The position numbers and the translations under genes were made by a program. 64,000 bases of DNA from PVC group bacterium (lineage in GTDB: Bacteria > Auribacterota > Erginobacteria > Erginobacterales > Erginobacteraceae): NCBI GenBank assembly GCA_043804695.1, contig JAZDIV010000048.1:5941-69940 (forward strand), in the 5' to 3' direction. Shown here piece by piece: positions 4,887 to 60,388 of the stretch (positions are counted from its first letter, which is position 1; each line of letters begins with the position of its first letter). The notes beneath the pieces were generated by a model. The model saw nothing but the letters and a program-made list of their open reading frames with translations. It did not search any database and was not told the origin of the DNA.

Positions 4887-4990
4887 GTCATTGCGAGCCG
4901 AAGCCGCGAGCGCAGCGTGGCGGGCAGCGAAGCAATCTCAATTCGTTGCAATACAATAGATTGCTTCGTCGCTCTGCTCCTCGCAATGAC
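4887..4990. repeat. Palindromic 'GTCATTGCGAG...CGAAGCAATCT' element, copy C
   Basis: gtcattgcgagccgaagccgcgagcgc...cgaagcaatctcaattcg...agattgcttcgtcgctctgctcctcgcaatgac. Confidence 0.8.
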
Positions 4991-7896: not shown

Positions 7897-7937
7897 GTTC
7901 AACGTTCAACGTTGGACGTTCGATGTTCGACGTTCAT
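7897..7937. repeat. Heptamer tandem TTCRACG (GAACGTTC palindromes) in fabH 3' region
   Basis: ggttcaacgttcaacgttggacgttcgatgttcgacgttcat immediately downstream of the fabH stop. Confidence 0.7.
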
Positions 7938-10695: not shown

Positions 10696-10920
10696 AATAA
10701 ATTAGCGCCTCCGGCGCTAATTTAGAAGAATTGGAGTGAATTGTACCTTTTAAACGTGTAACAGACTGATAATTACCCAAGAATTAGTTTGAACGCAGCT
10801 GCTCAATAAACAACGGTAAGCCCTTAGTGTAATAAAACAAAATATTTTTTCCTGGTTGCTTTTTCGCCTGTTTCGGGAGTTCAATAATTGGATCTTTCCG
10901 ATTATTGAAATTCCGAAACA
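10696..10920. repeat. ~225 bp dispersed repeat (family 2), copy 1; begins with start-codon hairpin B and ends with A'-A palindrome
   Basis: About 95% identical to 27414-27644. Contains ttagcgcctccggcgctaa at the rsmD ATG and tgtttcgggagttcaataat...attattgaaattccgaaaca at the distal end. Confidence 0.85.
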
Positions 10921-11004
10921 TGAACTTAGCTTCGCAACTGTGGGAGGGCTTTCCAAGCCCGATAATCGGGGTTCATCGGGGCTCCATTCGTTCTGCGGCG
11001 GGCA

Positions 11005-11060
11005 CCGTTCGACGTTGGGCGTTGAACGTTGAACGTTGAACGTTCATTGTTCGATGTTCA
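11005..11060. repeat. Heptamer tandem (GAACGTT/TTSRACG) in recG 3' region
   Basis: cgttcgacgttgggcgttgaacgttgaacgttgaacgttcattgttcgatgttcat just downstream of the recG stop. Confidence 0.7.
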
Positions 11061-11067
11061 TCCCTCC

Positions 11068-13140: not shown

Positions 13141-13270
13141 TAATAAATTAGCTCGCTGCGCTCGCTACTTTATAATGGACCCGATTGATTCAATCGGGGT
13201 CTGTTGGTTAATTAAGATATTTTCACCGAGGCAACAATATACAAAAGCCTTTCCAACATCAGCCAACATT
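13141..13270. repeat. ~130 bp dispersed repeat (family 3), copy 1
   Basis: taaattagctcgctgcgctcgctactttataatggacccgattgattcaatcggggtctgttggtta... also found at 43292 and 47397. Confidence 0.85.
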
Positions 13271-13458
13271 TGTCTTCCGGGATATGATTTTTCTGTTGGC
13301 TTACGGTAACCCACTCTGATTTTTTCGAAGAAAAAATCAGATTATTGAAATTCCGAAACAGCGAGATAACTTTATCCTTGTTTAACGTTCTTCCCTGTGC
13401 TAAACAAGGCTTCCTCAATCAACCGAAAAGGGATGACTTAATTAAGGATTATAACACC

Positions 13459-16890: not shown

Positions 16891-16993
16891 TGACCTCCTT
16901 TCAATATTTTTTCCTTGTTCTTGTATTCCTGTTTAACAGGTAAAGGCGTCGATAGTACTACAACCACCCGGTCAGCGCAACCCACAACCGTTC

Positions 16994-18169
<1,176 letters not shown>

Positions 18170-19234: not shown

Positions 19235-19779
19235 TGTTTTAAATTTTTCCCGGGAAATTTAAAACGCTCGTACTCGCTGTAGAGACATCCGCAGTACTGC
19301 TGCTTATAGAGACCATATCGCTCGGTCAGGTCCCAGTGCTCCTTCCATCCTTCCCGGAAATCCCGGTAGAGGAATTCGATCCCTGTCTCCCGGGAAACGT
19401 CTTCGGCAATCTTCCTGGCCAGCTCATGCTTCTGCTGCTTGCTGATCAATAAAGTGGTTGTAAACGCATCGTACCGCCCCTTCCGGGCAACCGCGGTGGT
19501 CTGCCTCAGACGCAGATAATAACAGTAGCGGCAGCGGGCAGCCTCCCGGAAGGCCGTCAGGCGGAAGAACTCTTCCATATCGTAACGGGGGGCAAAGATT
19601 ACCTTCACGCCCGTCTTCTCCGCGTACCCGCCGACGGCTTCTTTGCGCTTCAGATATTCCCGGTAAGGGTGAATGTTGGGGTTGTAGAAATAGCCGTCAA
19701 CCTGATGCCCTTCTTCGGAGAGAATCTTGAATGGATAGGTGGCACAGGGCCCGCAGCAGATGTGGAGTAAGATCCTCAT
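19231..19779 (-). CDS. queH: epoxyqueuosine reductase QueH (DUF208)
   Basis: 182 aa, LLHICCGPC N-terminus and conserved Cys pattern of QueH; adjacent to queA and tgt. Confidence 0.75.
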   Translation of the reverse strand: MRILLHICCGPCATYPFKILSEEGHQVDGYFYNPNIHPYREYLKRKEAVGGYAEKTGVKVIFAPRYDMEEFFRLTAFREAARCRYCYYLRLRQTTAVARKGRYDAFTTTLLISKQQKHELARKIAEDVSRETGIEFLYRDFREGWKEHWDLTERYGLYKQQYCGCLYSEYERFKFPGKNLKQ

Positions 19780-19845
19780 AACATTAAAAAATGGAGATCA
19801 GATAATCAGTAGGGAGTTGATCAGGAAATACATAAGAAGGTTATC

Positions 19846-20050
19846 GGATGATCAGGAAATCAGCAGGCAGATTATCGGGGTATTAAGGTTATCAGTCAGG
19901 GGGGCTCGCAATCTGATCACCTGATCTTCCGGTATCCCTTCCAAGGATATCAGATGATCAGGAAATCAGTAGGCAGATGATCAGGGTATAAGGTTATCAG
20001 GCAAGGGGGCCTCGCAATCTGATCACCTGATCCTCCGGTATCCCTCCCAC
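19846..20050. repeat. Tandem direct repeat (~108 bp period, about 2.5 copies), TGATCAG-rich
   Basis: gatgatcaggaaatcagcaggcagattatcggggtattaaggttatcagtcaggggggctcgcaatctgatcacctgatcttccggtatccc repeated at 19955-20045 with about 90% identity; a partial unit lies at 19800-19845. Confidence 0.8.
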
Positions 20051-20133
20051 TGATACCCTGATCACCTGATATCCCTTCCTTAGGTATCCCTCCCACTGAT
20101 ATCATGTTTTCCTGATACGCTATCTTCCCCTCT

Positions 20134-21153
20134 TTACAACAACTCACCCTGAGAACCCCGGGGCAGTTTTATCTCCAGGTGGCGGTAGGCGAGAGGTGTG
20201 GCGCAGCGTCCGGTGCGGGTGCGCTTGAGGTAACCCTGCTGAATCAGGTACGGTTCGTACACTTCGGCCAGGGTGTCTCCTTCTTCGCCGATGGCAACGG
20301 CGATGGTCTCGATTCCGACCGGTCCCCCCTCAAACTTCCGGATGATCGTTTCCAGGATGCGCTTGTCCATCTCATCGAGGCCTTTCTCATCGACGTCCAG
20401 CATGCTGAGCGCCCGGTGGGCGATCTCCGGGGTGATCTTATTATCCGCCCTGACCTGGGCGTAATCTCTCCCCCGCTTGAGAAGGGAATTGGCGATCCGG
20501 GGCGTACCCCGCGAGCGACGGGCGATCTCCCAGGCGCCATCCCCGGTAATCTCGACCTGGAGAATACCGGCCGCGCGGAGCACTATCTCCTTCGGTTCTT
20601 CCGGCCGGTAAAAATCCAGCCGGTTGACCAGGCCGAAACGGTTCCGGAAAGGCGCCGTCAGCAGACCGTACCGGGTGGTCGCGCCAACGAGGGTGAAATG
20701 AGAGAGATTGAGACGCACCGAGCGGGCCGACGGGCCCTGATCGATCATGATATCGATCACGAAATCCTCCATGGCCGGGTAGAGATATTCCTCCACGATA
20801 TGGGTCAGGCGATGAATCTCGTCAATAAACAGGATATCCCCGGTCTTCAGATTGGTTAAAAGGCCCGCCAGGTCTCCCGGTTTTTCGATGGTGGGCCCCG
20901 AGGTGGTTTTGATATCACAATTCATCTCCGAGGCGATGATATAGGCAAGGGTGGTCTTGCCGAGTCCGGGCGGCCCGAAAAAGAGAAGATGATCCAGAGG
21001 TTCGTTCCGCCCCCGGGCGGCCTGGAGCGCGATCTGGAGCCGGTCCTTGATCTTTTCCTGCCCGGTGAACTGATCAAAGGCGGACGGCCGCAGCTGGCGA
21101 TCGAGCGAGGCATCATGCTCTTTCAAGGTCTGATTGATAAACCGATCTGACAT
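20134..21153 (-). CDS. ruvB: Holliday junction branch migration ATPase RuvB
   Basis: 339 aa, AAA+ Walker [10 protein letters not shown] and RuvB C-terminal winged helix. Confidence 0.92.
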
Positions 21154-21154: not shown

Positions 21155-21245
21155 GAATTTGGGATTTGTGATTTGTAATTTATTTGTTATTTGGAATTTG
21201 TGATTTGTAATTTATTCCCATTAATCGCATTAACGTATTAGTTAA
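21155..21245. repeat. AT-rich tandem repeat (TTTGTGATTTGTAATTTATT x2) between ruvA and ruvB
   Basis: gaatttgggatttgtgatttgtaatttatttgttatttggaatttgtgatttgtaatttatt. Confidence 0.7.
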
Positions 21246-22068: not shown

Positions 22069-22147
22069 GTCATTGCGAGGAACGAAGTGACGAAGCAATC
22101 TTAGCCAATTTAAAAACAAGAGATTGCTTCGCTCCGCTCGCAATGAC
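22069..22147. repeat. Palindromic 'GTCATTGCGAG...CGAAGCAATCT' element, copy D
   Basis: gtcattgcgaggaacgaagtgacgaagcaatcttagcc...agattgcttcgctccgctcgcaatgac. Confidence 0.8.
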
Positions 22148-22213
22148 CATCACAAAAGATGTAATCTATTTAATGTTCTTCTTAGTAAGTCGATTATTTA
22201 AATTCCGAACACC

Positions 22214-22714
22214 TTATTTTTCCGCAGGAAAAATAGTATCGTGAAAGTACGTAATCCCCAGGGCCAGGGCGTCCGAAACATCGAATGGAGTGGGGAGCGC
22301 ATCCAGTTTCAGCAGGACCTGAACCATTTTCTGGACCTGTCTTTTATCAGCCGCGCCGTTCCCGACCACGGCTTTCTTTACCCGTCGGGCGGCATAGGTG
22401 GAGACCGGGATATCCCGCCGGGCCGCGGCCAGACTGCACACACCCCGTACCTCTCCCAGGGTTAATGTCGATCTGATGTTCTTATGATAAAAGACGTCTT
22501 CGAGAATAAATCTCCGGGGATGGTACCGCTCAATCAGTCCTTCTATTGCGGAGTGGATACGGGCCAATTTTTCCGCCGAAGTCTTCAGCCCCTTGCCGGT
22601 AATTGTACCGGCAGCCAGGAGAATTATATCTTCGCCCCGTTTCTCGAGAACGCCATAGCCGGTCACATTGATTCCAGGGTCAACGGCGATGATGCGAAGG
22701 GCATTAGGGGTCAC
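22214..22714 (-). CDS. ruvC: crossover junction endodeoxyribonuclease RuvC
   Basis: 166 aa, RIIAVDPGINVTGYG RNase H-like start. Confidence 0.9.
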   Translation of the reverse strand: MTPNALRIIAVDPGINVTGYGVLEKRGEDIILLAAGTITGKGLKTSAEKLARIHSAIEGLIERYHPRRFILEDVFYHKNIRSTLTLGEVRGVCSLAAARRDIPVSTYAARRVKKAVVGNGAADKRQVQKMVQVLLKLDALPTPFDVSDALALGITYFHDTIFPAEK

Positions 22715-23592: not shown

Positions 23593-23762
23593 CAGTCAGT
23601 CCATAATTATATGGACATGTCATTGCGAGGAGCGAAGCGACGAAGCAATCTCAACCCCATGCGCGGCAAGGGATTGCTTCGCGTAGTCTACCCCGATTTA
23701 TCGGGGCTCGCAATGACCGCAATCGTTGATGTAATTACTATAACGGTCGGATTAATAACACT
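23593..23762. repeat. Palindromic 'GTCATTGCGAG...CGAAGCAATCT' element, copy B (full length, inverted relative to copy A)
   Basis: agtcagtccataattatatggacatgtcattgcgagg...cgaagcaatct...ctcgcaatgaccgcaatcgttgatgtaattactataacggtcggattaataac is the reverse complement of 3250-3397. Confidence 0.85.
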
Positions 23763-26175: not shown

Positions 26176-26376
26176 AGTTAGAAACGGATTGAAATAAGTG
26201 CCTAAAGTTCAAAGTGCCTAAAGTGCCTAAAGTTAAAACTGCCCGCCGTGACTCTTGGCCGGGCGGGCCGGAACCGCCGGCGGAGCAATACTATAATTAC
26301 CGCAAGGAATGCCGAAGGCATTCCGATCCGGCAAGTCCCGGAGCGAAGCGACTGGACGATACTACATCTGTTCCAT

Positions 26377-26937: not shown

Positions 26938-26964
26938 ATAAGTTAGCGCCTCCGGCGCAACTTG

Positions 26965-27026
26965 GTGTAAAGTTTAAAGTGGAAAATGTAAGGGATCTTT
27001 ACACTTTACACCTGACACTTTACACA
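26965..27026. repeat. Tandem-unit hairpin, GTGTAAAG family (copy 2)
   Basis: gtgtaaagtttaaagtggaaaatgtaagggatctttacactttacacctgacactttacac. Confidence 0.75.
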
Positions 27027-27107
27027 GCTGTATTGAAATTCCGAAGCAGCAAGTTAGCGCCTCCGAAGCTGCTAATGATATTATTTTTGCACAGCAAAAA
27101 TAATAAC

Positions 27108-27413: not shown

Positions 27414-27644
27414 TATAAATTAGCGCCTCCGGCGCTAATTTAGAAGAATTTGGAGTGAATTGTACCTTTTAAACGTGTAACAGACTGATGATTACCCAAG
27501 AATTAGTTTGAATGTAACTGCTCAATAAACAACGGTAAGCCTTGAGTGTAATAAAATAAAACAAAATATTTTTTCCTGGTTGCTTTTTCGCCTGTTTCGG
27601 GAGTTCAATAATCGGATCTTTCCGATTATTGAAATTCCGAAACA
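27414..27644. repeat. ~225 bp dispersed repeat (family 2), copy 2
   Basis: Near-identical to 10696-10920; carries hairpin B at the ABM gene's ATG and an A'-A palindrome distally. Confidence 0.85.
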
Positions 27645-27833
27645 GGCACGTTAGCTCACGCATTAGATACTACAAAGCATACTCTCACGTCAATAAAACA
27701 AACGTACGGGCGGCACGTGGTGGAGAAAAAAGCAGGACTTCCGTTACATAAAAAAACCAGATAGACGAATCTATCCGGGAAAAAAGATTACTACAGCCAC
27801 AGTTTAAGAGAGAGAGACTGTGTAACAGTTTAA

Positions 27834-28221: not shown

Positions 28222-28339
28222 GCCCCGCGGCAACCTACTCTCCCCCCCAGTCTCCCGGGAAGTACCATCGGCTCAGAAGGGCTTCACGACCGTGTTCGGG
28301 ATGGGAACGGGTGTTTCCCCTTCGATATGGCCACGGGAC
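28222..28339 (-). rRNA. rrf: 5S ribosomal RNA
   Basis: Reverse complement reads GTCCCGTGGCCATATCGAAGGGGAAACACCCGTTCCCATCCCGAACACGGTCGTGAAGCCCTTCTGAGCCGATGGTACTTCCCGGGAGACTGGGGGGGAGAGTAGGTTGCCGCGGGGC. 5' and 3' ends pair as helix I. Confidence 0.9.
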
Positions 28340-28522
28340 TAATTTTTTCGCTTCGCGAAAAAATTATTGTTATCTCAAGCCAACAATTTCTCCACGAAGC
28401 ACAAATAAATTAAGGTCAGTATCTTGTCTGTTAACTACTTCAAAAAGCTTCGGCGGGGATCTTAAACTATTTTATTTATCCCTCCCCGGAACGAACGTTC
28501 CGGGGAGGGAAAATAAAATATA

Positions 28523-31591
<3,069 letters not shown>

Positions 31592-31691
31592 AGTAAATAA
31601 TAATTTACCGATCTGCCTCGACTTCTTGCAGTACTCAAGACTTCCCGGAGGACAGACACTGCTCCCCCGGAATGCCTCAAGACCCTGACCT

Positions 31692-31707
31692 CAATTGTCA
31701 AAGAACA
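31692..31707 (-). promoter_or_regulatory. boxA-like antitermination element in the tRNA-Ala to 23S spacer
   Basis: Minus strand TGTTCTTTGACAATTG; matches E. coli boxA TGCTCTTTAACAATTT. Confidence 0.6.
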
Positions 31708-31745
31708 TAAAATTTTTCCGTACCGGAAAAATTTTATTAATAAAA

Positions 31746-31818
31746 TGGAGCTGAGGGGTTTCGAACCCCTGACCTCAGGCTTGCAAAGCCCGCGCTCTCC
31801 CAGCTGAGCTACAGCCCC
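31746..31818 (-). tRNA. tRNA-Ala (anticodon TGC)
   Basis: Reverse complement GGGGCTGTAGCTCAGCTGGGAGAGCGCGGGCTTTGCAAGCCTGAGGTCAGGGGTTCGAACCCCTCAGCTCCA; G3:U70 identity pair present. Confidence 0.92.
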
Positions 31819-31923
31819 TTAAAATTTTTTCCGAAGAAAAAATTTTAAGGACACATTACCATACCAGACATTTAATCAAAAGAGCAAATATCCAACAATA
31901 CTTCGCATCAGTCCACTCAGACA

Positions 31924-31997
<74 letters not shown>

Positions 31998-32235
31998 TTA
32001 TTTTTTTGCTCCGCAAAAAAATAATGTGTAGCGCCTTCGTCGCTACCAATTCTAATTCAAGGCGTTGATCTCAATTATCAAATCTTTATATAGATCCCGC
32101 TGAATATATTTTTTATTACGACGCAAAGCGTCGTAATCGCCTTTTTATTTCCTCCGCCGTTTTCCCTTGGAAAACGGCGGAGGAATATAAAAAGAATGGC
32201 AAGACGGGTCCAGCACGGAAGCCGTTGCTACTCTT

Positions 32236-33836
<1,601 letters not shown>

Positions 33837-34054: not shown

Positions 34055-35278
34055 TCACCCAGCCAGCGCGATCCGGCAAAAATGCCGTTTGCCCAGCTTG
34101 AGAACGTCATTAGCTTTGACCGCGATCAGGGCCTCGTGTTCAACTATTTTTTCTCCGTTTAAACTGACCGCTCCCTCCTTGATCTTCCGGCGGGCCTCCG
34201 CGTTGCTGGAGACCAGCGATGCCTTCCGGAGCAGGGTTACGATGTTGATCATGCCTTCGGCCAGATCATCCGGCCCCAGCCGGAGAGACGGCATCTCCCG
34301 GGGCGCTTTTTTCTTCTGGTGGACCGTCTCAAAAGTCCGCTGCGCCTCGCGGGCGTCCTGACTCGAAGTAAACCGTTCGGCGATCTCGAAGGCCAGGTTC
34401 TTCTTCCAGATCAGGGGATTGGTCCCCGCGGCGCAGGCCCGCTTCGCCTCTCCGATTTCCTCGGCGCTCCGATCGGACAGCAGCTCGAAATAGCGCCACA
34501 TCATGTTGTCGGAGATGGACATTATCTTGCCGTAGATATCCCGGGCCGGCTCGCTGATCCCCACGTAGTTCCCCAGGCTCTTGCTCATTTTCTGCACCCC
34601 ATCGGTCCCTTCCAGCAGGGGGAGGGTCATGACCGTCTGCGGGGGCTGCCGGTATTCCCGTTGAATTTCCCGGGCCAGGAGCAGGTTAAAGGTTTGATCG
34701 GTCCCCCCCAGCTCCAGGTCGGACCGGACGATAACCGAGTCATACCCCTGCATCAGGGGATAGAGGAACTCCAGCACGCTGATCGGGCGCCCCGCCCGGT
34801 AGCGTTCCGAGAAATCATCGCGTTCCAGCATGCGGGCCACCGTATACTTGGAGGTGAGCTCAATGATATCGGAAAACTTCAGCGGCGAGAGCCAGGAGCT
34901 GTTGTAAACCACCTCGGTCTTTTCCCGGTCGAGAATCTTGAACACCTGCTCCTGATAGGTGCGGGCGTTCTCCATGATTTCGTCCCGGGAGAGGCGGCGG
35001 CGGGTCCTGGTTCTTCCGGAAGGATCGCCGACCAGCGCGGTGAAGTCACCGATGATGAATACGACCAGGTGGCCCAGATTCTGGAACTCGCGCAGCTTGC
35101 GGAGGGGAACGGTATGCCCGAGATGGATGTCGGGAGCCGAGGGGTCGGCGCCGTACTTGACCCGGAGCGGCCGCCCGGAGGAGAGGGAACCTCGGATTTT
35201 GACCGCCAGATCGTCTTCCGGAATGATCTCGACGGCGCCCCGCCGGATGATTTTCAGTTGCTGTTCTACCGGATCCAT
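34055..35278 (-). CDS. tyrS: tyrosine--tRNA ligase
   Basis: 407 aa; HIGH-type motif (HLGH), KMSKS, C-terminal S4 domain. Confidence 0.92.
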   Translation of the reverse strand: MDPVEQQLKIIRRGAVEIIPEDDLAVKIRGSLSSGRPLRVKYGADPSAPDIHLGHTVPLRKLREFQNLGHLVVFIIGDFTALVGDPSGRTRTRRRLSRDEIMENARTYQEQVFKILDREKTEVVYNSSWLSPLKFSDIIELTSKYTVARMLERDDFSERYRAGRPISVLEFLYPLMQGYDSVIVRSDLELGGTDQTFNLLLAREIQREYRQPPQTVMTLPLLEGTDGVQKMSKSLGNYVGISEPARDIYGKIMSISDNMMWRYFELLSDRSAEEIGEAKRACAAGTNPLIWKKNLAFEIAERFTSSQDAREAQRTFETVHQKKKAPREMPSLRLGPDDLAEGMINIVTLLRKASLVSSNAEARRKIKEGAVSLNGEKIVEHEALIAVKANDVLKLGKRHFCRIALAG

Positions 35279-35289
35279 CTATAAATTAG

Positions 35290-35465
35290 CGCCTTCGGCG
35301 CAACTTGGTTACGGCCAGGGTAACGATGCCCGTTTCGGCAAAGGTAACGGTAACGGCCACTCCGCCTGGCGCACGTAACCGTAACCGGCAGACGAAACCC
35401 CGATAAATCGGGGCAGGCTGGGCCTCGTAACCGTAACCGTAGCCGTTATTGAAATTCCAAAGCAG
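35290..35465. repeat. ~170 bp dispersed repeat (family 4, GTAACGG-rich), copy 1
   Basis: ggttacggccagggtaacgatgcccgtttcggcaaaggtaacggtaacggcc...gtaaccgtaaccgtagccgttattgaaattcc; about 85% identical to 38812-38960. Confidence 0.85.
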
Positions 35466-35468
35466 GAA

Positions 35469-35607
35469 CTTAGCCCTCACTTCGCTCGGGCGACTAAATA
35501 AAACTACGAATTACGCGAATTACACGAATTTTCTTTAAAATATCCCTGCACTGTCGGTTCAATGCTTGCACATTCTTATTTTTCCGGAGGAAAAATAAGA
35601 TTATTGA
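35469..35607. repeat. ~135 bp dispersed repeat (family 5), copy 1
   Basis: ctacgaattacgcgaattacacgaatt...gttcaatgcttgcacattcttatttttccggaggaaaaataag; second copy at 44153-44300. Confidence 0.8.
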
Positions 35608-35645
35608 AATTCCGAAACAGCAAGTTAGCGCCTCCGGCGCAACTT

Positions 35646-35700
35646 GGTGTAAAGTTTAAAGTGTAAGGAATCTTTACACTTTACACCTGACACTTTACAC
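35646..35700. repeat. Tandem-unit hairpin, GTGTAAAG family (copy 3)
   Basis: gtgtaaagtttaaagtgtaaggaatctttacactttacacctgacactttacac. Confidence 0.75.
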
Positions 35701-35917
35701 AGCTTTATTGAACTCCCGAAACAGGGAATGAGCGCCTTCGGGGATGACTTCTATTCCGGCAAAGGTTGGGGTGATTACTTCCAAAATGGATATCGGATTA
35801 TCAGCATATCAGTGGGAAGGACATCAGGAACTTAGGAGAACAGGTAAGGGCTCGGCCTCGCCTGATAATCTGATATCCTGAGGCCCTTCCCACAGATATG
35901 CTGATTCCCTGGTATCC

Positions 35918-37756
35918 TTATTTCTCTTCTCCCCCTTCATCCGCGGGGGCGGTGTCTTCCCCTGACATTTCAGAAGCCGGGGTGGCCGGCCCGGCTATCG
36001 ATTCGGCCAGTTTTTCCAGGCCGTCCTTGAGGCGGGTGTCGACATCTTTCATCCGGGGCCGCACCGTCTCCGCACCGGCGGGCGGTTCCTGCTCCAGCCC
36101 TTTTCCCTGGAGATAGTTTTTAATGCTCAGGGCGATCCGCCGCTCGTCCTTATCGATATTGATCACCTGCGCCTTGACCGCGGCGCCTTCCGCAATGACG
36201 TCTTTAATGTTCTCAAACGGCTTGTCGCTGACCTGGGAGATATGCACCAGCCCCTCGATGCCGGAGTCAAGCTCCACAAACACGCCGAAGCCGGTGACCT
36301 TGGTCACCTTCCCTTCGACAACATCGCCCGGCATATACCTGCTGGTGACCTCCTCCCAGGGATCGATCCCCATCTGCTTGGTCCCCAGGGAGATTTTTTT
36401 ATTTTCAGCGTCAATCGAAAGAACAACCGCCTCCACCTTGTCGCCCCGCTTGAACAGCTGAGAAGGATGGGCTATCTTCTTCGTCCAGGACATGTCGGAG
36501 ACGTGAATCAACCCGTCGATGCCCTCCTCCAGCTCAAGAAACGCCCCGTAGGAGGTCATGTTCCGGATCTTCCCCTTAACGACACTGCCCACCGGGAACC
36601 TGTCGGCAACCTGCGTCCAGGGGTTGACCTCGAGCTGCTTGATCCCGAGCGAGATTTTTTCTTCTTCCGGCTGAGTCTTCAGGACCACGATCTCGATGAC
36701 ATCGCCGATCGCGAGAATATCGGTCGGGTGGTTGATCTTGCGGGTCCAGGAGAGCTCGGAGATGTGGACCAGTCCCTCCACTCCGTCTTCCAGCTCGACA
36801 AAAGCCCCGTAGGGCATGATGTTCACCACCCGTCCCTGGACTTTCTTGCCGGGAGGATACTTTTCGCCCACCGACTCCCAGGGGTTGGGGGTCTTCTGCT
36901 TGAGTCCCAATGAGACCCGTTCCCGTTCCCGGTCATACTTCAGAATCTTGACTTCGACCTCATCCCCCACCGCCAGCAGCTCGGAGGGATGGCTGATCCG
37001 GCCCCAGGACATGTCCGTGATATGGAGGAGGCCGTCCAATCCTCCCAGATCTACGAAAACCCCGAAGTCGGTTATGTTCTTGACCACGCCTTTCCTGATG
37101 TCGCCTTCCGCGATCTCGGAGAGGAGCTTGGTCCGGGCACGGGTGCGCTCTTCTTCCAGAAGTTCCCGGCGGGACAAAACGATATTCCGCCGGCGTTCAT
37201 TGATTTTGATGATTTTGAACGCGAATTCCCGGCCCATCAGGCTGTCTTTATCTTTAATGTAGTGGATGTCGATCTGGGAGGCGGGCAGAAAAGCGTCCAG
37301 GCCGATATCGACCATCATCCCGCCTTTCACCCGCCGGGAGATAACCCCGGAAATGCTGTCCCCTTCCTGATACTGGGAGACGACCCGCTCCCAGTTTTTC
37401 AGCTTGTCCGCCTTCTGCTTGGAGATGCAGACCATCCCGTCCCTGTCTTCCAGACGCTCGAGGAAAACCTCCACCGTGTCCCCGGTCTGGAGGCTGGTCT
37501 CGGTCTCAAATTCACTCAGGGGGATCAGGCCCTCGGACTTGTAGCCGATATCGATAACCACGTATTCAGAACGGATCCCGTAAATCCGGCCGGTTACCAT
37601 CTTCCCTTCTTCGAGATGCTGCATGGTCGCCTCGACCATCCCCGCCAGCTCTTCCCGGGACATCGTCTCCCCGGCGCCGCTTTCTTGAATCGGTTGGGTT
37701 GTTTCGTTCGTCAGTTCCGTCATCTCACGTATTCCTTCCTGTTGCGGATATCCCAT
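35918..37756 (-). CDS. rpsA: 30S ribosomal protein S1
   Basis: 612 aa with six S1 domains and an acidic C-terminal tail; the start may be the MTELT ATG 11 codons in. Confidence 0.9.
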   Translation of the reverse strand: MGYPQQEGIREMTELTNETTQPIQESGAGETMSREELAGMVEATMQHLEEGKMVTGRIYGIRSEYVVIDIGYKSEGLIPLSEFETETSLQTGDTVEVFLERLEDRDGMVCISKQKADKLKNWERVVSQYQEGDSISGVISRRVKGGMMVDIGLDAFLPASQIDIHYIKDKDSLMGREFAFKIIKINERRRNIVLSRRELLEEERTRARTKLLSEIAEGDIRKGVVKNITDFGVFVDLGGLDGLLHITDMSWGRISHPSELLAVGDEVEVKILKYDRERERVSLGLKQKTPNPWESVGEKYPPGKKVQGRVVNIMPYGAFVELEDGVEGLVHISELSWTRKINHPTDILAIGDVIEIVVLKTQPEEEKISLGIKQLEVNPWTQVADRFPVGSVVKGKIRNMTSYGAFLELEEGIDGLIHVSDMSWTKKIAHPSQLFKRGDKVEAVVLSIDAENKKISLGTKQMGIDPWEEVTSRYMPGDVVEGKVTKVTGFGVFVELDSGIEGLVHISQVSDKPFENIKDVIAEGAAVKAQVINIDKDERRIALSIKNYLQGKGLEQEPPAGAETVRPRMKDVDTRLKDGLEKLAESIAGPATPASEMSGEDTAPADEGGEEK

Positions 37757-37960
37757 CCGGGGACAACCGCCGCGGTTGCGCCGGCCGCTAGGACGACCGG
37801 CGGGGTTGTGTTATTTTTGCCGCCCCGGCAAAATCGGGGCGGTAAAAACAACGGTGTATTTTTGAGCCAAAGGGGGCGGAGGATAGCACCGGAGCGTTTC
37901 TGAGTCAATATCTAACTGGATTCGGTGTCCGACAATTGTCCGCCTATGATAAATGACGAA

Positions 37961-38118: not shown

Positions 38119-38811
38119 TTACTTAATGTACTCCAGTATCTTCCGCAAGTTGACCTCCACATCATCCGTGTCCCCGGTATCGATCACGATCCCGTCTTCG
38201 GCCAGGCGGAGAGCCCCGACCGGCCGGGTCTTGTCCGCGTGATCCCTTTTGATCAAATCTTTTTCGACTTCCTCCCGGGTGGTTTTGAGACCATTCTGGA
38301 GGAATTCCCGGTGGCGCCGGCCGGTCCTTATTTCAAGGGGAGCATCCACGAAAAACTTATAGTCGGCATCCGGGAAGACGACGGTGCCGGTGTCCCTCCC
38401 TTCCGCCACCACGCTCCTCGAGGCGGCGATCGCCCGCTGCTGGGTAACCAGCTCCTTCCTGACCTCCGGGACATCCGCCAGAAATTTTACCGTGTTGGTC
38501 ACTTCCGGGGTACGGATCACCCTGGTCACCTCCTGGCCGTCGACAAAAACCCGGGTCCCCTCCTCCCCCTTTCTCAAGCGGATCTCGGTGTTCTTCGCCA
38601 GTTCGATCAGGCCGTCTTTATCCTCCATCTCCACCGGCGACCGGAGCGCCTTCCAGGTGATCGCCCGGTAGATGGCGCCGGTGTCGAGATAAATCACCCC
38701 CAGCCGTTCGGCCAGGCGCCGGGCGATCGTGCTCTTCCCCGAGCCGCAGGTCCCATCCATGGTTATTGTAATCCTTCTTTCTTGTGCGCTCATGGATAAT
38801 ATTCTTATCAT
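38119..38811 (-). CDS. cmk: cytidylate kinase
   Basis: 230 aa; P-loop DGTCGSGKST and cmk NMP-binding region. The start may be the second in-frame ATG. Confidence 0.9.
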   Translation of the reverse strand: MIRILSMSAQERRITITMDGTCGSGKSTIARRLAERLGVIYLDTGAIYRAITWKALRSPVEMEDKDGLIELAKNTEIRLRKGEEGTRVFVDGQEVTRVIRTPEVTNTVKFLADVPEVRKELVTQQRAIAASRSVVAEGRDTGTVVFPDADYKFFVDAPLEIRTGRRHREFLQNGLKTTREEVEKDLIKRDHADKTRPVGALRLAEDGIVIDTGDTDDVEVNLRKILEYIK

Positions 38812-38960
38812 TCAGTGCCTTCGGCGCAACTCGGTTACGGCAAGGGTAACGATGCCCGTTTCGGGAAAGGTAACGGTAACGGCCGCCCCGCTTGGCGCAC
38901 GTAACCTTAACCGGCAGACGAAACAGGCCTCGTAACCGTAGCCGTAGCCGTAGCCGTTAT
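38812..38960. repeat. ~150 bp dispersed repeat (family 4), copy 2
   Basis: Begins with degenerate hairpin B (gtgccttcggcgcaac) at the cmk ATG, then ggttacggcaagggtaacgatgcccgtttcgggaaaggtaacggtaacgg...gttattgaaattccg. Confidence 0.85.
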
Positions 38961-39059
38961 TGAAATTCCGATGATATTCTGATCCCCTTCCCACTAATCT
39001 CCTGATTATCTGATCCCCTTATATTATATGACTTTGATCCCCTGATGCTTTTTGTTTCT

Positions 39060-40004: not shown

Positions 40005-40143
40005 AAAAATGACGAGAACCGAATGACGAAATCCGAATGACGAATCCCCTCCCCCGGCGGCGGGGTGGGTGTATATGTTACCTGGTCATTTGTCATTAAT
40101 ACATTCTTTCGGATTTCGTCATTCGGGTTTCGACATTCTTATG
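40005..40143. repeat. Tandem-unit hairpin, GAATGACGAA family (copy 2), between tyrA and aroB'
   Basis: aaaatgacgagaaccgaatgacgaaatccgaatgacgaatcc...tcatttgtcattaatacattctttcggatttcgtcattcgggtttcgacattc. Confidence 0.8.
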
Positions 40144-43291: not shown

Positions 43292-43425
43292 TTTATAAAT
43301 TAGCTCGCTGCGCTCGCTACTTTATAATGGACCCGACTGCGTCGGGTCTGTTGGTTAACTAAGATATTTTCACCGAGGCAACATTATAAAAAAGCCTTAT
43401 AATCTCAGCCAACATTTACCCCATG
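43292..43425. repeat. ~130 bp dispersed repeat (family 3), copy 2
   Basis: ataaattagctcgctgcgctcgctactttataatggacccgactgcgtcgggtctgttggttaactaagatattttcaccgaggcaacat... Confidence 0.85.
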
Positions 43426-44152: not shown

Positions 44153-44300
44153 TTAGCTCACTCCGCTCGGGCAATTCAATAGAACTACGAATTACGCGAA
44201 TTACACGAATTTACTTTAAAATAAGTCAACGATATTAGTTCAATGCTTACACACTATTATTTTTTAGCCCCGAGCCAAAGTATTAATCGGGGGAGAAAAA
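44153..44300. repeat. ~140 bp dispersed repeat (family 5), copy 2
   Basis: ctacgaattacgcgaattacacgaatttactttaaaataagtcaacgatattagttcaatgcttacacactattattttttagccccgagcc... Confidence 0.8.
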
Positions 44301-47396: not shown

Positions 47397-47530
47397 ATTA
47401 ATTAGCGCCTTCGGCGCTACTTAATAGCGGACCCCGATTGATTCAATCGGGGTCTGTTGGTTAACTAAAATTCTTACATCGATTCGCCATTATACAAAGG
47501 CCCCATAACCTCAGCCAACTTTTATTCTTG
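47397..47530. repeat. ~130 bp dispersed repeat (family 3), copy 3
   Basis: ttaattagcgccttcggcgctacttaatagcggaccccgattgattcaatcggggtctgttggttaactaaaattc... Confidence 0.85.
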
Positions 47531-47596: not shown

Positions 47597-47674
47597 CCAC
47601 GAAGAGCACGAAGAGCACGAAGAGGGAAAAACACCTTATCCCGGTTTTCTTCGTGACCTTCGCGAGCTTCGTGG
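47597..47674. repeat. Tandem-unit hairpin, CACGAAG family (copy 2)
   Basis: ccacgaagagcacgaagagcacgaagag...cttcgtgaccttcgcgagcttcgtgg. Confidence 0.8.
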
Positions 47675-49123: not shown

Positions 49124-50065
49124 CTATCCGCGGGGATGAAAGCGCCGGTGCACTTCCTTGAGGCGCTCGCGGTCAACATGGGTGTAGATCTGGGTGGTGC
49201 TGATGTTGGAGTGGCCGAGCAGCTCCTGGACCACCCGGAGGTCCGCCCCCTGGCTGAGGAGATGGGTGGCGAACGAATGGCGGAGCGTATGGGGGCCGGC
49301 CTTTTTCTTGATCCCGGCCCGGCGAAGGTAGGTCTTCACCAGACACCAGAGCCATTGCCGCGTAAAGTGCTTTCCCTGCCGGGAGAGGAAAAGGTCCGGG
49401 GAGGCGGACTTCTTGAGCAGAAGCGGACGGGACCACTCCAGGTAATCGGAAAGGGCCCGGGCGGCTTTCCGGCCCAGGGGCACTATCCGCTCCCGGGCTC
49501 CCTTCCCCCAGGCGCGGACAAACCCCGACTGCAGGTTGACGTCATCGACCCGGAGACCGATCAGTTCGGAAGCCCGCAGCCCGCTGGCATACAGCAGCTC
49601 CAGAACCGCCCGGTCTCTTAAACCCAGGGGGGTGGAAAGATCCGGCTGGCCGAGAAGAGATTCCACTTCCGCGATGGAGAGGACCTGGGGGAGTATCTTC
49701 CAGAGACGGGGAGACTCCACCACCTCGGTCACATCCCGCCTCAGGTATCCCTCCAGGGTCAGAAACCGGAAGAGCATCCGGATCGAGACGAGCGTCCGGG
49801 AGAGGGAACGAGGTGTCAGACCGCGATCCTTCTCGGCCAGCAAAAAATCCATCACGTCGTCCCGCTCGACGGCCGCCAATCCTCCTGGGCCCTTCCGGCT
49901 CAAGAACGTGATGAACTTCTCCAGATCGGTCCGGTAACTGCAGGTCGTGTTGGGGCTCAACCCCCGTTCGACATCGAGGTAGCGGATGAACTCATCCAGG
50001 TAGATTTTTCCCGAGGGGAAAAATCTATCGAGTGAAGAAGCCTGGGTAACGTTATCTCGCCCCAT
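49124..50065 (-). CDS. xerD: tyrosine recombinase XerD/XerC
   Basis: Phage-integrase N-terminal SAM-like domain and catalytic R...HxxR...Y (HTLRHSFATHLL...GHSNISTTQIYTHV). The start is taken at the internal ATG (50065) to avoid a 70 nt overlap with the upstream gene. Confidence 0.85.
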   Translation of the reverse strand: MGRDNVTQASSLDRFFPSGKIYLDEFIRYLDVERGLSPNTTCSYRTDLEKFITFLSRKGPGGLAAVERDDVMDFLLAEKDRGLTPRSLSRTLVSIRMLFRFLTLEGYLRRDVTEVVESPRLWKILPQVLSIAEVESLLGQPDLSTPLGLRDRAVLELLYASGLRASELIGLRVDDVNLQSGFVRAWGKGARERIVPLGRKAARALSDYLEWSRPLLLKKSASPDLFLSRQGKHFTRQWLWCLVKTYLRRAGIKKKAGPHTLRHSFATHLLSQGADLRVVQELLGHSNISTTQIYTHVDRERLKEVHRRFHPRG

Positions 50066-50090
50066 AGCTGCGCCGGTTACATTTCCACTA

Positions 50091-50738
50091 TTATTTTTCA
50101 CCAGGAAAAATAATAAAGGGGTTGGAATTCCTTTCTTCGCCGATGGTAGAATGGGGGCCATGACCGGGAAGAATCATCGTATCATCCGGGAAAGACAGCA
50201 GGCGATTCTTGATGCTCGCCATGAGTTGATTCATGGATCCTCCGGGAAAATCAGTGCGGCCGACTCCCCCCGCGAAGAGGGTGTCGCCGGTGAAGACAAG
50301 ATCCGGCTCATCGCCGCGGGGAAGCCGGAGACAGACACTTCCCGGGCTGTGCCCGGGAGTGGACACGACCTTCAGCTTCAGCCGGCCGACCTCGACCTCA
50401 TCATCATCCTGAAGTTCCCGGTCGCAGGCAGGCGAATCGATTCGCCCGAGGCCGAGCAGACTCAAATTACGATCCGGATCGGCCAGAGCACCGGCATCCG
50501 CATGATGAATGAGCAAAGGAACCCCGTACTGCTCTTTCAACGCCCGGTTGGCGGCGATGTGATCGATATGGCCGTGGGTGTTGATCAAGACGACCGGGGT
50601 GAGGTTCTCCCTTTCGATCACCGAGACAATCACATCCGGGTCCCCGCCGGGATCGATGATTGCAGCCTGCCCGTCGTCATCGGCCAGAATGTAACAGTTA
50701 GCCTGAAGAGTCCCGACGACCAGCCTTTTAATCTTCAT
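50091..50738 (-). CDS. MBL-fold metallo-hydrolase (glyoxalase II-like)
   Basis: 215 aa; HxHxDH zinc motif (THGHIDH). Confidence 0.8.
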   Translation of the reverse strand: MKIKRLVVGTLQANCYILADDDGQAAIIDPGGDPDVIVSVIERENLTPVVLINTHGHIDHIAANRALKEQYGVPLLIHHADAGALADPDRNLSLLGLGRIDSPACDRELQDDDEVEVGRLKLKVVSTPGHSPGSVCLRLPRGDEPDLVFTGDTLFAGGVGRTDFPGGSMNQLMASIKNRLLSFPDDTMILPGHGPHSTIGEERNSNPFIIFPGEK

Positions 50739-56867: not shown

Positions 56868-56940
56868 TCAGTTGTCAGTACCTCTCCCGGTCGGCCGATA
56901 CTGATTACCGATCACCGATTACTGATTACCGTCATTACAT

Positions 56941-57919: not shown

Positions 57920-60067
57920 ATGAAACGTACGATAAAAATTATTATCTTCGCTTCCTTTATTCTTGGGATTGCGTTACTGCTAACCGCATTGGTATACCGC
58001 GGTGAATTGCTCGGGCATTTCCATGCCCGGGCCGGCATCTCCGATCTAAGGAACGGGAATGTTGAGTCGGCATTACATCATCTAAAAAAAACGGTCGAGG
58101 CGTGCCCTTTCGACCGGCAGGCGAACAGCATTTTTGGACGCTGGATGCGCTATTTCGGCAAGCGGGATGAGACCGTCGGTTTTTATAGGGATCTGGTGAA
58201 GATTTATCCCCGGGAGCCCATATTTCACTATTTCCTGGGAATGAATCTCTTAACACCCCGCCAGTATGAAGCGGGGGTACGCGAACTGGGAAAAGCCCTG
58301 AAGATAGATCCTGGTTATTATCCGGCCTATTACGGCCTTGGTATCTATCACACCCTGATGGGCGAAGCGGAGATAGCCGAGGATAATTTCCGGAAGTGCC
58401 GGGAGCTGGCCCCGGACTCAGATCTCTCTTATCTGGGCCTGGGCTATCTCAATAACTCCCGGCGGTGGGATAACGAAGCCCTGCGAGAATTTGAAACGGC
58501 TTGTCAAAAACGTCCGGACGACTTTCTCTGCCATAAAATATTGTTCACGTTATATTCTTCAACCGGGCAAAGAGACAAGGCAATCGCGGCGATGCAGAGG
58601 GCGTTATCTCTCTGCCCGTATCTGCCCCATTACGATACTCTCCGGAAGCAGTTAAAAAAGTATTCTTCCCAGGAAATCAAGCAGGTACCACCATTGCCGC
58701 CTGAGCAGGAAGAACGAATTCGTGAAAAGGAAAGAGCCGCTTTCGCCCGTTGGCAGAGAGAAGCCGGAGAGCAAGTTGACCCGGCGCGAGCTAACCTCAC
58801 TATGGCTAAAAAGATCTATGGCGAGTTTGATATTGAAAAGTATCTTGAAGAGATCAATCGGATGGCCGAAGACCTGGGACCTGTAATCCGTTTACTCACC
58901 TCACCCCGTGAGAAGATAAAGCGAATCAATCAATATCTATTTCAGGAAATAGGGATCACGGTGCCCTGGATCAAAGGCGACCCGAACGATGTATTTCTGA
59001 ACCGGGTTCTGGAGAGAAAACAGGGGAACTGTCTCGGCCTCAGTTGTCTCTATGTCTCATTAGGCCGGAGATTGAATCTCCCGATTTACGCGGTGGTTGC
59101 GTACCGGCATATATTCTGCCGGTATGATGACGGCCGGGAGAGAATAAATATCGAAACTCAGTCCCGGGGAGAAGAATTACCCGATTCACTCTATCGACTC
59201 TCTCTCCCCCCGGCCTGGATTGAGAGAGGGATATATTTAAAGAATGCAACCTCTGAAGAGTTGACCGCCATCCTGCTTCATGGTCGCGGTTGGGTTTCAA
59301 TGGCGAATAAAAAATACCAGTATGCGGCGGACGATTATAAAGAAGCGCTTAATCTGACATCTGATTTAGCCGGGCTCTGGTTCGGGATGGGTCTCGCAAG
59401 TTACCTGACCAGCAATTACGAAGAAGCAATTGATTACTTTGAAGCATCCTTACAATTGGAACCGGGCTATGACAACGCTCTCTACAATCTTGGAAAAGCA
59501 TACAACCGGAGAGGAAACACGGGGATGGCAATTCAGAGCCTCCAAGAAGCCCTCTCAGTCACCCATAATCGTTTCATCTCTTTCAAGATCTTTCTGGAAC
59601 TGGGAAGGGCACAGCGTAAAAGACGCGACTATCAAAAATCGATCGAAGCTTATCAGGCAGCATTGCGGTTAGAGCCGGATTCAATTTCAGCCAAGGATGA
59701 TCTGGCATTTACATACCGTAGTTTTAATGAATTTGATAAGGCGAAAAAACTCTACCAGGAGATATTAAAGAGAGAACCGAACAACGACAGGGCTTTATTA
59801 GGCCTGGGCATGATCTCTACCGATTTGAAGGATCACGAAGTGGCGTTACCCTATTTCAAACAATCGGTCGAGGCCAAACCCGGAATTCCTTATCACCATT
59901 ACCGGTTAGGACTGTGCTATGCCCGCCTGGGAGATATAGAAAATGCTGAGCGTCAGCAGATTATTATAAAAGACCTGGAGCCGCGTCTCGCGAACAGGCT
60001 ATTACAGGCCATAAAAGTGAAGTCGAAAGATGGGAGAGGAGAAAAGAGAGGAACCAGTAATCAGTGA
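57920..60067 (+). CDS. membrane-anchored TPR-repeat protein with embedded transglutaminase-like (SirB1/YchA-type) domain
   Basis: 715 aa; N-terminal TM segment, multiple TPR units, central KQGNCLGLSCLYVSLGRRLNLP Cys-containing core with downstream His/Asp. Confidence 0.65.
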   Translation: MKRTIKIIIFASFILGIALLLTALVYRGELLGHFHARAGISDLRNGNVESALHHLKKTVEACPFDRQANSIFGRWMRYFGKRDETVGFYRDLVKIYPREPIFHYFLGMNLLTPRQYEAGVRELGKALKIDPGYYPAYYGLGIYHTLMGEAEIAEDNFRKCRELAPDSDLSYLGLGYLNNSRRWDNEALREFETACQKRPDDFLCHKILFTLYSSTGQRDKAIAAMQRALSLCPYLPHYDTLRKQLKKYSSQEIKQVPPLPPEQEERIREKERAAFARWQREAGEQVDPARANLTMAKKIYGEFDIEKYLEEINRMAEDLGPVIRLLTSPREKIKRINQYLFQEIGITVPWIKGDPNDVFLNRVLERKQGNCLGLSCLYVSLGRRLNLPIYAVVAYRHIFCRYDDGRERINIETQSRGEELPDSLYRLSLPPAWIERGIYLKNATSEELTAILLHGRGWVSMANKKYQYAADDYKEALNLTSDLAGLWFGMGLASYLTSNYEEAIDYFEASLQLEPGYDNALYNLGKAYNRRGNTGMAIQSLQEALSVTHNRFISFKIFLELGRAQRKRRDYQKSIEAYQAALRLEPDSISAKDDLAFTYRSFNEFDKAKKLYQEILKREPNNDRALLGLGMISTDLKDHEVALPYFKQSVEAKPGIPYHHYRLGLCYARLGDIENAERQQIIIKDLEPRLANRLLQAIKVKSKDGRGEKRGTSNQ

Positions 60068-60388
60068 TCAGTAATCAGTAATCAGTGATCAGTAGGCCAC
60101 CGCCCGGCGAAACACTGACTACTGATTAAGCTTTGAGATAAAAGCATTCTGGGCGCTTCTATTAATCGGTTGATCCGGCTTTGCCGTGGGGAAACCGGCA
60201 GACTGGGTATAACCGATACTCCTGGCGATCATACTCGACGGGATTGCTGAAAGCCCCGCCTCCGGCCCGGCGACGCGGGCGCCTGCGAAGAGAACGCTCC
60301 GGCCGCTCCCCGCGCTATCTTTTCAATATTCTGTGGACGTATGATAGATCCCTCGATATTTCACTCACGCACACACCTCGCCCGGAAC

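Follow-up and report, generated by a model that had tools for sequence, protein, structure and literature searches.

The 639-nt spacer between rpsA and tyrS (positions 35279–35917) in a 64-kb stretch of DNA from a PVC-group bacterium, the whole of which we call the window, consists almost entirely of repeated, stacked hairpin modules. We think it probable that the spacer is an array of non-coding cassettes, that these belong to an interspersed mosaic palindromic repeat family found across the Erginobacteraceae, and that the array has grown at one module, hairpin B, which abuts the tyrS start codon. The source is a metagenome-assembled genome (MAG) of Candidatus Auribacterota, family Erginobacteraceae. 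A homology search showed its TyrS to be shared at 100% identity with a ‘PVC group bacterium’ MAG, whereas exact look-ups of the tyrS and efp proteins gave no match. Interspersed palindromic repeats are known in many bacteria, but their mode of spread and their function have been established in very few cases.

An ordered stack of hairpin modules

Both flanking genes lie on the minus strand. Read in gene direction, the spacer and its neighbours comprise the following features, with box A, hairpin B and palindrome C as the recurring elements.

35918–37756, minus strand: rpsA (30S ribosomal protein S1), upstream gene; NCBIfam NF004952, 2.9e-217
35783–35922, minus strand: long hairpin with arms of TGATCAG/GATATCA-type short units; inverted repeat, 67-nt arms 35783–35849 and 35856–35922
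35726–35752, minus strand: B′, degenerate 3′ half of a B hairpin, directly upstream of A′; third copy of the direct repeat, 63% identity
35705–35724, minus strand: box A′ (CTGTTTCGGGAGTTCAATAA), start of cassette 1; 2 mismatches to the A consensus
35646–35700, minus strand: GTGTAAAG-unit hairpin, variable core of cassette 1; three inverted repeats
35622–35645, minus strand: hairpin B (AAGTTGCGCC-GGA-GGCGCTAACTT), end of cassette 1; covariance-model match, 33.8 bits
35601–35620, minus strand: box A (CTGTTTCGGAATTTCAATAA), start of cassette 2, one base after B; exact match
35574–35600, minus strand: palindrome C (TCTTATTTTTCC-NNN-GGAAAAATAAGA); inverted repeat, 12-bp perfect arms
about 35466–35572, minus strand: family 5 body (GTGCAAGCATTGAAC...), ending in a B-like hairpin B′ (35466–35496); 35476–35583 is 82% identical to 44157–44264
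35446–35465, minus strand: box A (CTGCTTTGGAATTTCAATAA), start of cassette 3; 2 mismatches
35307–35445, minus strand: family 4 hairpin of GTAACGG units, core of cassette 3; 35280–35398 is 91% identical to 38806–38924
35283–35306, minus strand: hairpin B (AAGTTGCGCC-GAA-GGCGCTAATTT), end of cassette 3; covariance-model match, 41.5 bits
34055–35278, minus strand: tyrS (tyrosine--tRNA ligase), downstream gene; TIGR00234, 1e-112, alignment from residue 2

These modules cover about 598 of the 639 nt (~94%), the largest stretch outside them being 35753–35782, and they recur far above chance. In the window, box A matches 9 times at up to 3 mismatches where shuffles predict 0.00; for the B core the observed and expected figures are 9 matches, spread over 7 sites, and 0.04, and for palindrome C they are 7 and 0.01. 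A first-pass annotation, made from the sequence alone, had described the spacer as such a stack, and that description is borne out. Its coordinates were right except for the middle box A, which it put at 35593–35613, about 8 nt away from the true position and overlapping C. It had also seen the same grammar upstream of efp (26938–27107), rsmD (10696–11067), recG (13141–13344) and cmk (38812–39059), as do we. Its statement that all repeat families share their ends holds for the gene side, where the end is always B or B′; on the far side it is A in some families and C in others.

Most modules are predicted to fold strongly. Against dinucleotide shuffles, the folding z-score is −8.3 for the TGATCAG-type long hairpin (minimum free energy −68.2 kcal/mol), −6.2 for C, −4.0 for the GTGTAAAG hairpin, −3.5 for B and −3.1 for family 4. 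Family 5, at −0.2, is unstructured and is not a hairpin module. In a search with Rfam 15, only ribosomal RNA (rRNA) and transfer RNA (tRNA) passed in the window, and positions 35200–36000 gave only noise-level microRNA and small nucleolar RNA matches (E ≥ 0.6).

Several modules have counterparts elsewhere. The 140-nt TGATCAG-type long hairpin, which begins at the rpsA stop codon and is followed by AUUUU, has motif-level relatives at 19837–20117 and 38975–39015. The GTGTAAAG-unit hairpin is 85% identical to 26972–27065 upstream of efp, and its unit type is also present at the tyrS site of the related contig L111. The order B-A-C-family 5 recurs in the sequence designated L023, and a C palindrome precedes each of the family 5 copies in L023, L108 and L013. 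A small CCCCGAT..ATCGGGG hairpin is nested in family 4 at 35398–35413 and is missing from the family 4 copy upstream of cmk. Hairpins of this CCCCGAT-loop-ATCGGGG kind are nested in loops or arms of family 4, of two C palindromes and of family 3, at 35398–35413, ~37805–37830, ~44262–44290, 13180–13200 and 23600–23625. At 19837–20049, a TGATCAG-type hairpin unit is present as a 106-nt tandem duplication (2 copies, 89%), with a T run after the array, downstream of the gene at 20134–21153.

Orthologous spacers differ in length and content

The first-pass annotation had suggested serial insertion of small elements that target or carry B, and comparative evidence supports serial insertion of elements that both adjoin and carry it. 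Several A boxes were found in Candidatus Euphemobacter frigidus and Candidatus Erginobacter occultus, both likewise members of Candidatus Auribacterota, family Erginobacteraceae, and in two further MAGs; the contig scan for A used a short 17-mer, most of whose 110 matches are chance, and only genomes with multiple matches are informative. The gene order cmk-rpsA-tyrS-rRNA operon is kept in five related contigs (L111, L113, L114, L115 and L116). Their TyrS identity to the window, rpsA–tyrS spacer length and spacer content are as follows.

Window: TyrS 100%; 639 bp; full array
L111: TyrS 79%; 254 bp; B′-A-GTGTAAAG hairpin-B-gtac-ATG
L113: TyrS 74%; 156 bp; A/A palindrome and a B with a compensated stem
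L114: TyrS 72%; 127 bp; one CTTCGTG-unit hairpin
L116: TyrS 70%; 36 bp; no modules
L115: TyrS 70%; 21 bp; no modules

Set against L111, the window shows what appears to be a single step. The window B at 35622–35645 equals the L111 B that abuts the tyrS ATG in 24 of 24 bases. In the window this shared B is followed by g, then by a 339-nt extra block (A-C-family 5-B′-A-family 4-B) and then by atag-ATG; the extra block thus lies between two B copies that are 339 nt apart. Because the family 4 unit upstream of cmk likewise ends in a GAA-loop B, the downstream B appears to have come with family 4, and the older B to have stayed.

Other orthologous sites differ in a similar manner. Upstream of efp, C and B are kept at the ends around different contents, the window having C-B′-A-GTGTAAAG hairpin-B-ATG and L111 having C-family 3 cassette-B-ATG. 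The scpB–pheA spacer is 195 bp in the window versus 866 bp in L111, packed there with A and B units. Family 2 cassettes of ~230 nt, 94–100% identical, stand at 10697–10925 (rsmD) and 27415–27649 (a gene for an ABM-domain protein), and the L111 ABM gene has an ordinary leader where the window has the cassette. Family 2 contains a long A′/A inverted hairpin with B at its end.

The same spacers in different genomes hold hairpins of different short-unit types, and copies group by genome rather than by locus. Identity of the GTGTAAAG unit is 0.88 between the two window copies and 0.93 between two copies in the MFD02416 genome, against 0.78 between the orthologous tyrS copies of the window and L111; family 4 is likewise closer within a genome than between orthologous sites. 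Either the units have spread recently within genomes or copies have been homogenised within a genome. Base-for-base conservation of these spacers among relatives had been named in the first-pass annotation as the outcome that would speak against insertion, and the spacers are clearly not conserved in that way.

Hairpin B is tied to start codons

B is a GC-cored hairpin of ~25 nt. When 14 copies are aligned, 87% of cells are paired and compensatory changes are seen at 6 of the 11 pairs, a level reached by none of 500 shuffles. A covariance model built on these 14 copies was used to find B sites in the related loci and, independently, in 643 kb of metagenome DNA that had been selected on A, not on B. 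Among the 26 sites in related loci, a long open reading frame (ORF) starts within 9 nt of the stem in 12 (2–8 nt) and 16–32 nt away, with an ordinary Shine-Dalgarno sequence between, in 7; A follows in 3. Among the 47 metagenome sites, the start is 0–7 nt from the stem in 13 and 13–19 nt away in 7; A follows in 4. Pooled, a start lies at most 9 nt after the stem at 25 of 73 sites on the sense strand versus 1 of 73 on the antisense strand, a contrast with some circularity, since the seeds used to train the model were gene-oriented. A gene start lies within 45 nt downstream at 40 of the 73.

The window genes abutted by B are tyrS, efp, rsmD, recG, pheA and a tRNA nucleotidyltransferase. At tyrS, the stem of the B at 35283–35306 ends 4 nt before the ATG (35278). 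In all window copies of B, the strand that carries the downstream gene also carries the purine-rich loop, and the units run in one direction. A Shine-Dalgarno role for the loop was considered and rejected: the loop is often GGAGG or GAAGG, which would fit, but many others differ (GCAG, GGCG, GTAG), and the loop lies 11–17 nt from the ATG. With a variable loop at this distance, B is therefore not simply a ribosome-binding site. Rather, B is tied to start codons and behaves as a selected, strand-specific hairpin. As a stable stem-loop 5′ of an unstructured, AU-rich start, it could guard the 5′ side of the messenger RNA and screen the start from upstream sequence.

In one reading frame, every B has a TAA shortly before the start codon. 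At tyrS this TAA, 7 nt ahead of the ATG, ends a 64-codon ORF (35286–35480, minus strand) that spans B′-A-family 4-B; the ORF is probably no gene, but is likely to be mis-annotated as one.

Box A and the repeating unit

Box A, aligned from 39 copies in related loci and 134 non-redundant metagenome copies, is conserved over 20–29 nt (extended consensus GCTAAGTTC-CTGCTTCGGAATTTCAATAA), with an abrupt end to conservation after AATAA. The sequence before A is usually the 3′ arm of a B-type hairpin, and from B to A the distance is in all cases the stem plus 1 nt; in gene direction the units therefore consist of A, a variable palindrome and B, joined head to tail. Tandem units of 7–9 nt often make up the variable palindrome. 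Of the 134 metagenome copies of A, 65 are followed by a strong hairpin, 22 by a C palindrome and 47 by nothing marked. Copies of A in related loci are intergenic in 34 of 37 cases, and an exact A 20-mer was found in at least 120 metagenome stretches. Many copies lie at most 400 nt upstream of a same-strand ORF, by a test that is noisy; orientation of A relative to genes, judged by ORFs alone, was too noisy to be used.

Two functional candidates for A were rejected. As a sigma-28 promoter formed with the 3′ arm of B (consensus TAAAGTTT-N11-GCCGATAA), its ‘spacer’ is as conserved as its ‘hexamers’, the genes involved have housekeeping roles, and rRNA and rpsA have ordinary promoters of the TTGACA type. 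Nor does A fit the integration host factor site WATCAANNNNTTR. The 3′ arm of B and A may form a small hairpin (AAGTTCC/GGAATTT), in which only 50–93% of cells pair and compensatory changes are few. In two relatives (L027, ~3700; L052, ~2860–2900), a box A in the opposite orientation lies 10–13 nt upstream of the ATG of a divergent gene; the L052 product has a pilin-like N-terminus (...GFTLIEALIVVMVIG).

Palindrome C and the rRNA operon

C is a palindrome of ~27 nt with an A/T-rich stem, and 7 of its 12 pairs show compensatory changes across 19 copies. C-type hairpins also occupy the rRNA operon of the window (28222–33835), at four places.

31997–32025: C-type hairpin, abuts the tRNA-Ile 5′ end
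31818–31849: C-type hairpin, abuts the tRNA-Ala 5′ end
31706–31738: C-type hairpin, 8 nt after tRNA-Ala, directly before a boxA-like GTTCTTTGACAA
28336–28368: C-type hairpin, abuts the 5S rRNA 5′ end

The hairpin before tRNA-Ala holds the same place in 5 of 6 genomes and the one before the boxA-like sequence in 4 of 6, with stems that have changed and are still complementary. In the rpsA leader, a C hairpin lies at the same place in L111, L113 and L114, and the window copy has a CCCCGAT-type hairpin nested in its loop. The first-pass annotation had called C terminator-like, and at some genes C does follow the stop codon; however, since no U tract follows C and C-type hairpins lie within the rRNA operon, C is not a plain terminator, and we rejected it as an intrinsic one, for which a GC-rich stem with a U tract after it, closing a transcription unit, would be expected. 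It behaves as a conserved hairpin, probably of transcript punctuation.

C palindromes also overlap coding 3′ ends, at 16990–17018, 22211–22239 and 19237–19265; in two of these genes (16990 and 22211) the 3′ arm supplies the stop codon in the same reading, ...GAA AAA TAA. Two C-type palindromes (49998–50030 and 50088–50116) lie in the first 165 nt of an XerD-type recombinase ORF at 49124–50161 (minus strand), whose true start is probably downstream because its hidden Markov model match begins at residue 54–57.

Proposed growth of the array at hairpin B

We propose that new units are added one base after an existing B stem, at a B that normally lies 2–8 nt before a start codon. As each unit ends in its own B, addition would restore the B–ATG junction and leave a new landing site, and arrays would therefore grow head to tail at gene 5′ ends. 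By such additions, an ancestrally short rpsA–tyrS junction would have grown to 639 bp. Copying would be hairpin-directed and would leave no target duplication, by either of two routes. First, a single-strand (HUH-type), hairpin-recognising enzyme may be encoded elsewhere in the genome. Second, replication may switch template between B hairpins, copying A...B from a donor B-A...B into a recipient B. Both routes fit all the data.

At the RNA level, the array may be transcribed together with tyrS, its hairpins acting as punctuation. C-type hairpins would mark the boundaries of transcript segments, and B, as a 5′ stem-loop, would insulate the start site, such that upstream cassettes could accumulate without harm to translation. 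The 21–36-nt rpsA–tyrS junctions of relatives suggest that co-transcription was probably the ancestral state, in which case the array must be read through or bring its own start. A sigma-70 scan of the rpsA–tyrS spacer found no site, and a TTGAAC-N17-TTTAAA in family 5 was rejected as a promoter as it fails the −10 rule. Two family 3 cassettes (43383–43412 at pheA; 47489–47518 at the tRNA nucleotidyltransferase gene) carry TTGGCT-N18-TATAAT facing the gene, and some cassette types therefore appear to carry portable promoters, sigma-70-like by sequence. A third family 3 copy lies at 13197–13271.

Several points weigh against growth at B by insertion. The evidence for the insertion point comes mainly from one clean comparison (tyrS, window versus L111) and two looser ones, and a deletion between B copies in the relative would mimic that single step. 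No gene start is near 21 of the 47 metagenome B sites, and the strand contrast at B carries the circularity described above. Box A is the most conserved module, yet the proposal gives it no role. Transcription of the array, its processing and its effect on translation enter the proposal as inferred steps. A cognate transposase of the IS200/IS605 or IS110 type, for which the first-pass annotation had proposed a search, did not come to light. The 64-kb window holds no transposase, its only recombinase being the XerD-type one at 49124–50161 (TIGR02225, 6.9e-109), for which no link to the repeats was shown; and among the genes next to 161 A copies, in 727 kb of metagenome DNA, no transposase-like family is recurrent, the neighbours being ordinary (TPR, ABC, radical-SAM, glycosyltransferase).

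Relation to known repeat families

Repetitive extragenic palindromes (REPs) are short (20–40 nt), imperfect, extragenic palindromes in many copies, and their mosaics with other motifs are termed bacterial interspersed mosaic elements (BIMEs); both are known from Enterobacteria and Pseudomonas (PMC2817692, PMC3116915, PMC3733652). REPs bear an unpaired GTAG or CGTC tag at one end (PMC3733652), and in BIMEs they are regularly spaced in alternating orientation (PMC2817692). The repeats described here resemble the REP, BIME and REPIN–RAYT systems: they are extragenic palindromes, mosaic, lineage-specific, variable between relatives and probably transcribed into RNA hairpins, they leave no target duplication, and both B (~25 nt) and C (~27 nt) are short palindromes of REP size. 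In contrast to REPs and BIMEs, which alternate and lie mostly downstream of genes, they are arranged head to tail, upstream of genes, ending at the start codon. GTAG is present in 3 of the 14 B copies, inside the stem, and neither GTAG nor CGTC emerges as a consensus in the flanks. In a REPIN–RAYT system, the genome holds a RAYT (Y1 transposase) gene between its cognate REPs; the DNA covered here, namely the 64-kb window and the sequence beside A in the 727 kb, yielded no RAYT gene.

BOX elements of Streptococcus pneumoniae have the structure boxA-boxB(n)-boxC (PMC3049150). They share with the present repeats a modular build, with conserved ends around an expandable, variable middle, and folding when transcribed, and neither has an identified mobilising enzyme. 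BOX elements have no tie to start codons and are enriched between convergent genes, whereas here many unrelated hairpin families occupy the middle and B abuts the ATG. The short tandemly repeated repetitive (STRR) heptamers of heterocystous cyanobacteria, reportedly described by Mazel et al. in 1990, are intergenic 7-nt tandem arrays of several families. Here, too, there are families of 7-nt tandem units (GTAACGG, GTGTAAA, TGATCAG, CGTTCAA, CTTCGTG and others), but they form two inverted arms, as long hairpins, bracketed by A and B.

In Geobacter, multicopy sequences comprising palindromic families and 6–42-nt direct repeats fill intergenic regions, are clustered and are mostly absent from sister species, and their ‘insertion is not random’ (PMC2996986). 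The likeness lies in several repeat families clustered per intergenic region and mostly lacking in sister species; the phylum is unrelated, no sequence similarity was seen, and no A/B/C grammar or start-codon hairpin is described there (PMC2996986). REP/BIME, BOX, the Geobacter multicopy sequences and STRR are thus the closest kinds, and the family described here is a member of no named one. It is distinguished by its one-directional, head-to-tail arrangement upstream of genes, by a terminal hairpin at the start codon and by having no GTAG or CGTC tag.

Alternative explanations

As its other reading, the first-pass annotation had offered a composite regulatory architecture. In a static form, with no movement of DNA, C would end the preceding transcript, a cassette would supply a promoter and a hairpin leader, and B would present the ribosome-binding site. 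The recurrence of similar modules would then reflect a demand for similar signals. Part of this stands: B is tied to sense-strand start codons and its loop is often GGAGG or GAAGG; the TTGGCT-N18-TATAAT of family 3 faces the gene; and C follows stop codons, with C-type hairpins holding their positions at tRNA-Ala and other sites in the rRNA operon and in the rpsA leader. Still, the static layout as a whole seems unlikely to us. Orthologous spacers of 21 and 36 bp have no module at all, orthologous sites differ in cassette type with copies grouping by genome, and a need for signals hardly accounts for three tandem A-to-B units before one gene. The individual assignments are also weakened, in that the spacer has no sigma-70-like promoter, C lacks a U tract and has its like inside the rRNA operon, and the loops of B (GCAG, GGCG and GTAG among them) are not reliable Shine-Dalgarno sequences.

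A second alternative keeps the movement and names its agent. The units would be non-autonomous elements moved in trans by a single-strand transposase, either a Y1 enzyme of the RAYT or IS200/IS605 kind or an IS91-like Y2 rolling-circle enzyme, with B as both subterminal 3′ hairpin and landing site. Consistent with this are asymmetric ends with a 3′ hairpin, the lack of target duplications and terminal inverted repeats, the fixed distance of insertion from the hairpin foot and the head-to-tail arrays. IS91-family elements make no duplication, have asymmetric ends and a subterminal palindrome by the 3′ cleavage site (terIS), and insert beside CTTG or GTTC (bioRxiv 10.1101/2025.01.24.634351). The first three of these traits are shared here, and CTTG or GTTC usually stands before A in the window and its closest relatives (CTTG, GTTC, CTCG or GTCC in 18 of 39 copies of close relatives). 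That likeness weakens in other genomes: in the metagenome set, GCTAAGTTC is the commonest left flank and other junctions end in TTTA or CTTA, following the local variant of the B stem, which suggests that CTTG/GTTC derives from the sequence of B itself. Moreover, no Y2 transposase was found in the DNA covered, the units are non-coding and 100–230 nt long, a transposase gene is absent from the window with none recurrent near A, and neither the unpaired tag of REPs nor the alternation of BIMEs is seen. We hold this explanation to be doubtful.

A bolder version of growth at B, to which we give only a slender chance, is that B is the landing site and 3′ end of a dedicated, site-specific system of non-coding cassettes, an integron-like or HUH-like ‘leader builder’. 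It would stack A...B cassettes, some of them with promoters (family 3), precisely one base beyond a hairpin at a start codon, and B would also insulate, so that initiation of translation would not depend on the cassettes upstream. If true, a bacterial lineage would have a route, not described before, by which modular exchange rewires 5′ leaders and intercistronic regions. Integron attC cassettes were rejected: CGCTAAC/GTTGCGC of B misfits the RYYYAAC/GTTRRRY cores, B measures ~25 nt against 57–141 bp for the attC palindrome, and the only tyrosine recombinase of the window scores as XerD.

It is very improbable that the units are classical miniature inverted-repeat transposable elements (MITEs), that is, shortened insertion sequences bounded by terminal inverted repeats, mobilised by a DDE transposase and nested by chance in a tolerant spacer. 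Their small size, high copy number, strong structure and presence or absence between genomes would suit MITEs, and an IS66 transposase lies near the locus in L113. Against this, the unit ends, A (CTGYTTCGGAATTTCAATAA) and B (...GGCGCTAACTT), are not reverse complements; all units have one orientation and fixed junctions; and the only direct repeat flanking the 339-nt block is B itself, which at 24–27 nt is far longer than a target duplication. The target-site duplications that the first-pass annotation had proposed to delimit, and MITE-type ends, are thus absent, and with no terminal inverted repeats and only B as the flanking repeat, the classical form is ruled out and BIMEs are not fitted. 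Finally, although the source is a MAG and its contig holds 100–230-nt repeats at 82–97% identity, we see almost no chance that repeats were collapsed or mis-joined in assembly, given flanking synteny that matches five independent assemblies, spacer copies too diverged (82–91%) to be easily confused, and similar or longer arrays both in an independent MAG (contigs to 552 kb) and in at least 120 metagenome stretches.

Implications

This lineage offers an unusually legible case of interspersed palindromic repeats, with a small vocabulary of modules, fixed junctions, an orthologous site that ranges from 21 to 639 bp, a terminal hairpin tied to start codons and a second hairpin type punctuating the rRNA operon. 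If insertion one base after B holds in populations, it would provide a direct test of hairpin-directed transposition against template switching. If B insulates starts, this would explain how hundreds of structured bases are tolerated before the essential genes tyrS, efp and recG. On the practical side, the repeats will confuse gene callers, as with the 64-codon ORF through family 4, and assemblers working on Auribacterota MAGs.

Other repeats in the window

Intergenic arrays of 7–9-nt tandem units, often in two inverted arms, occur throughout the window (GTTCAAC, ATTTGTG, AAGTGCCTA, CACGAAGAG, CAGTAAT and others), examples being 7897–7936, 11012–11044, 21157–21213, 26196–26243, 40008–40044, 47598–47624, 56895–56931 and 60055–60094; relatives have other tandem-unit families at the same spacers. 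A separate intergenic family of nested inverted repeats, GTCATTGCGAG...CGAAGCAATC...GATTGCTTCG...CTCGCAATGAC, is unrelated to A, B and C and is found at 4928–4968, 22091–22131, 23641–23681 and 3310–3350. The 120–156-nt repeats at 60420–62233 are coding, lie inside an FG-GAP repeat protein (60389–62362) and are protein repeats outside the intergenic system.

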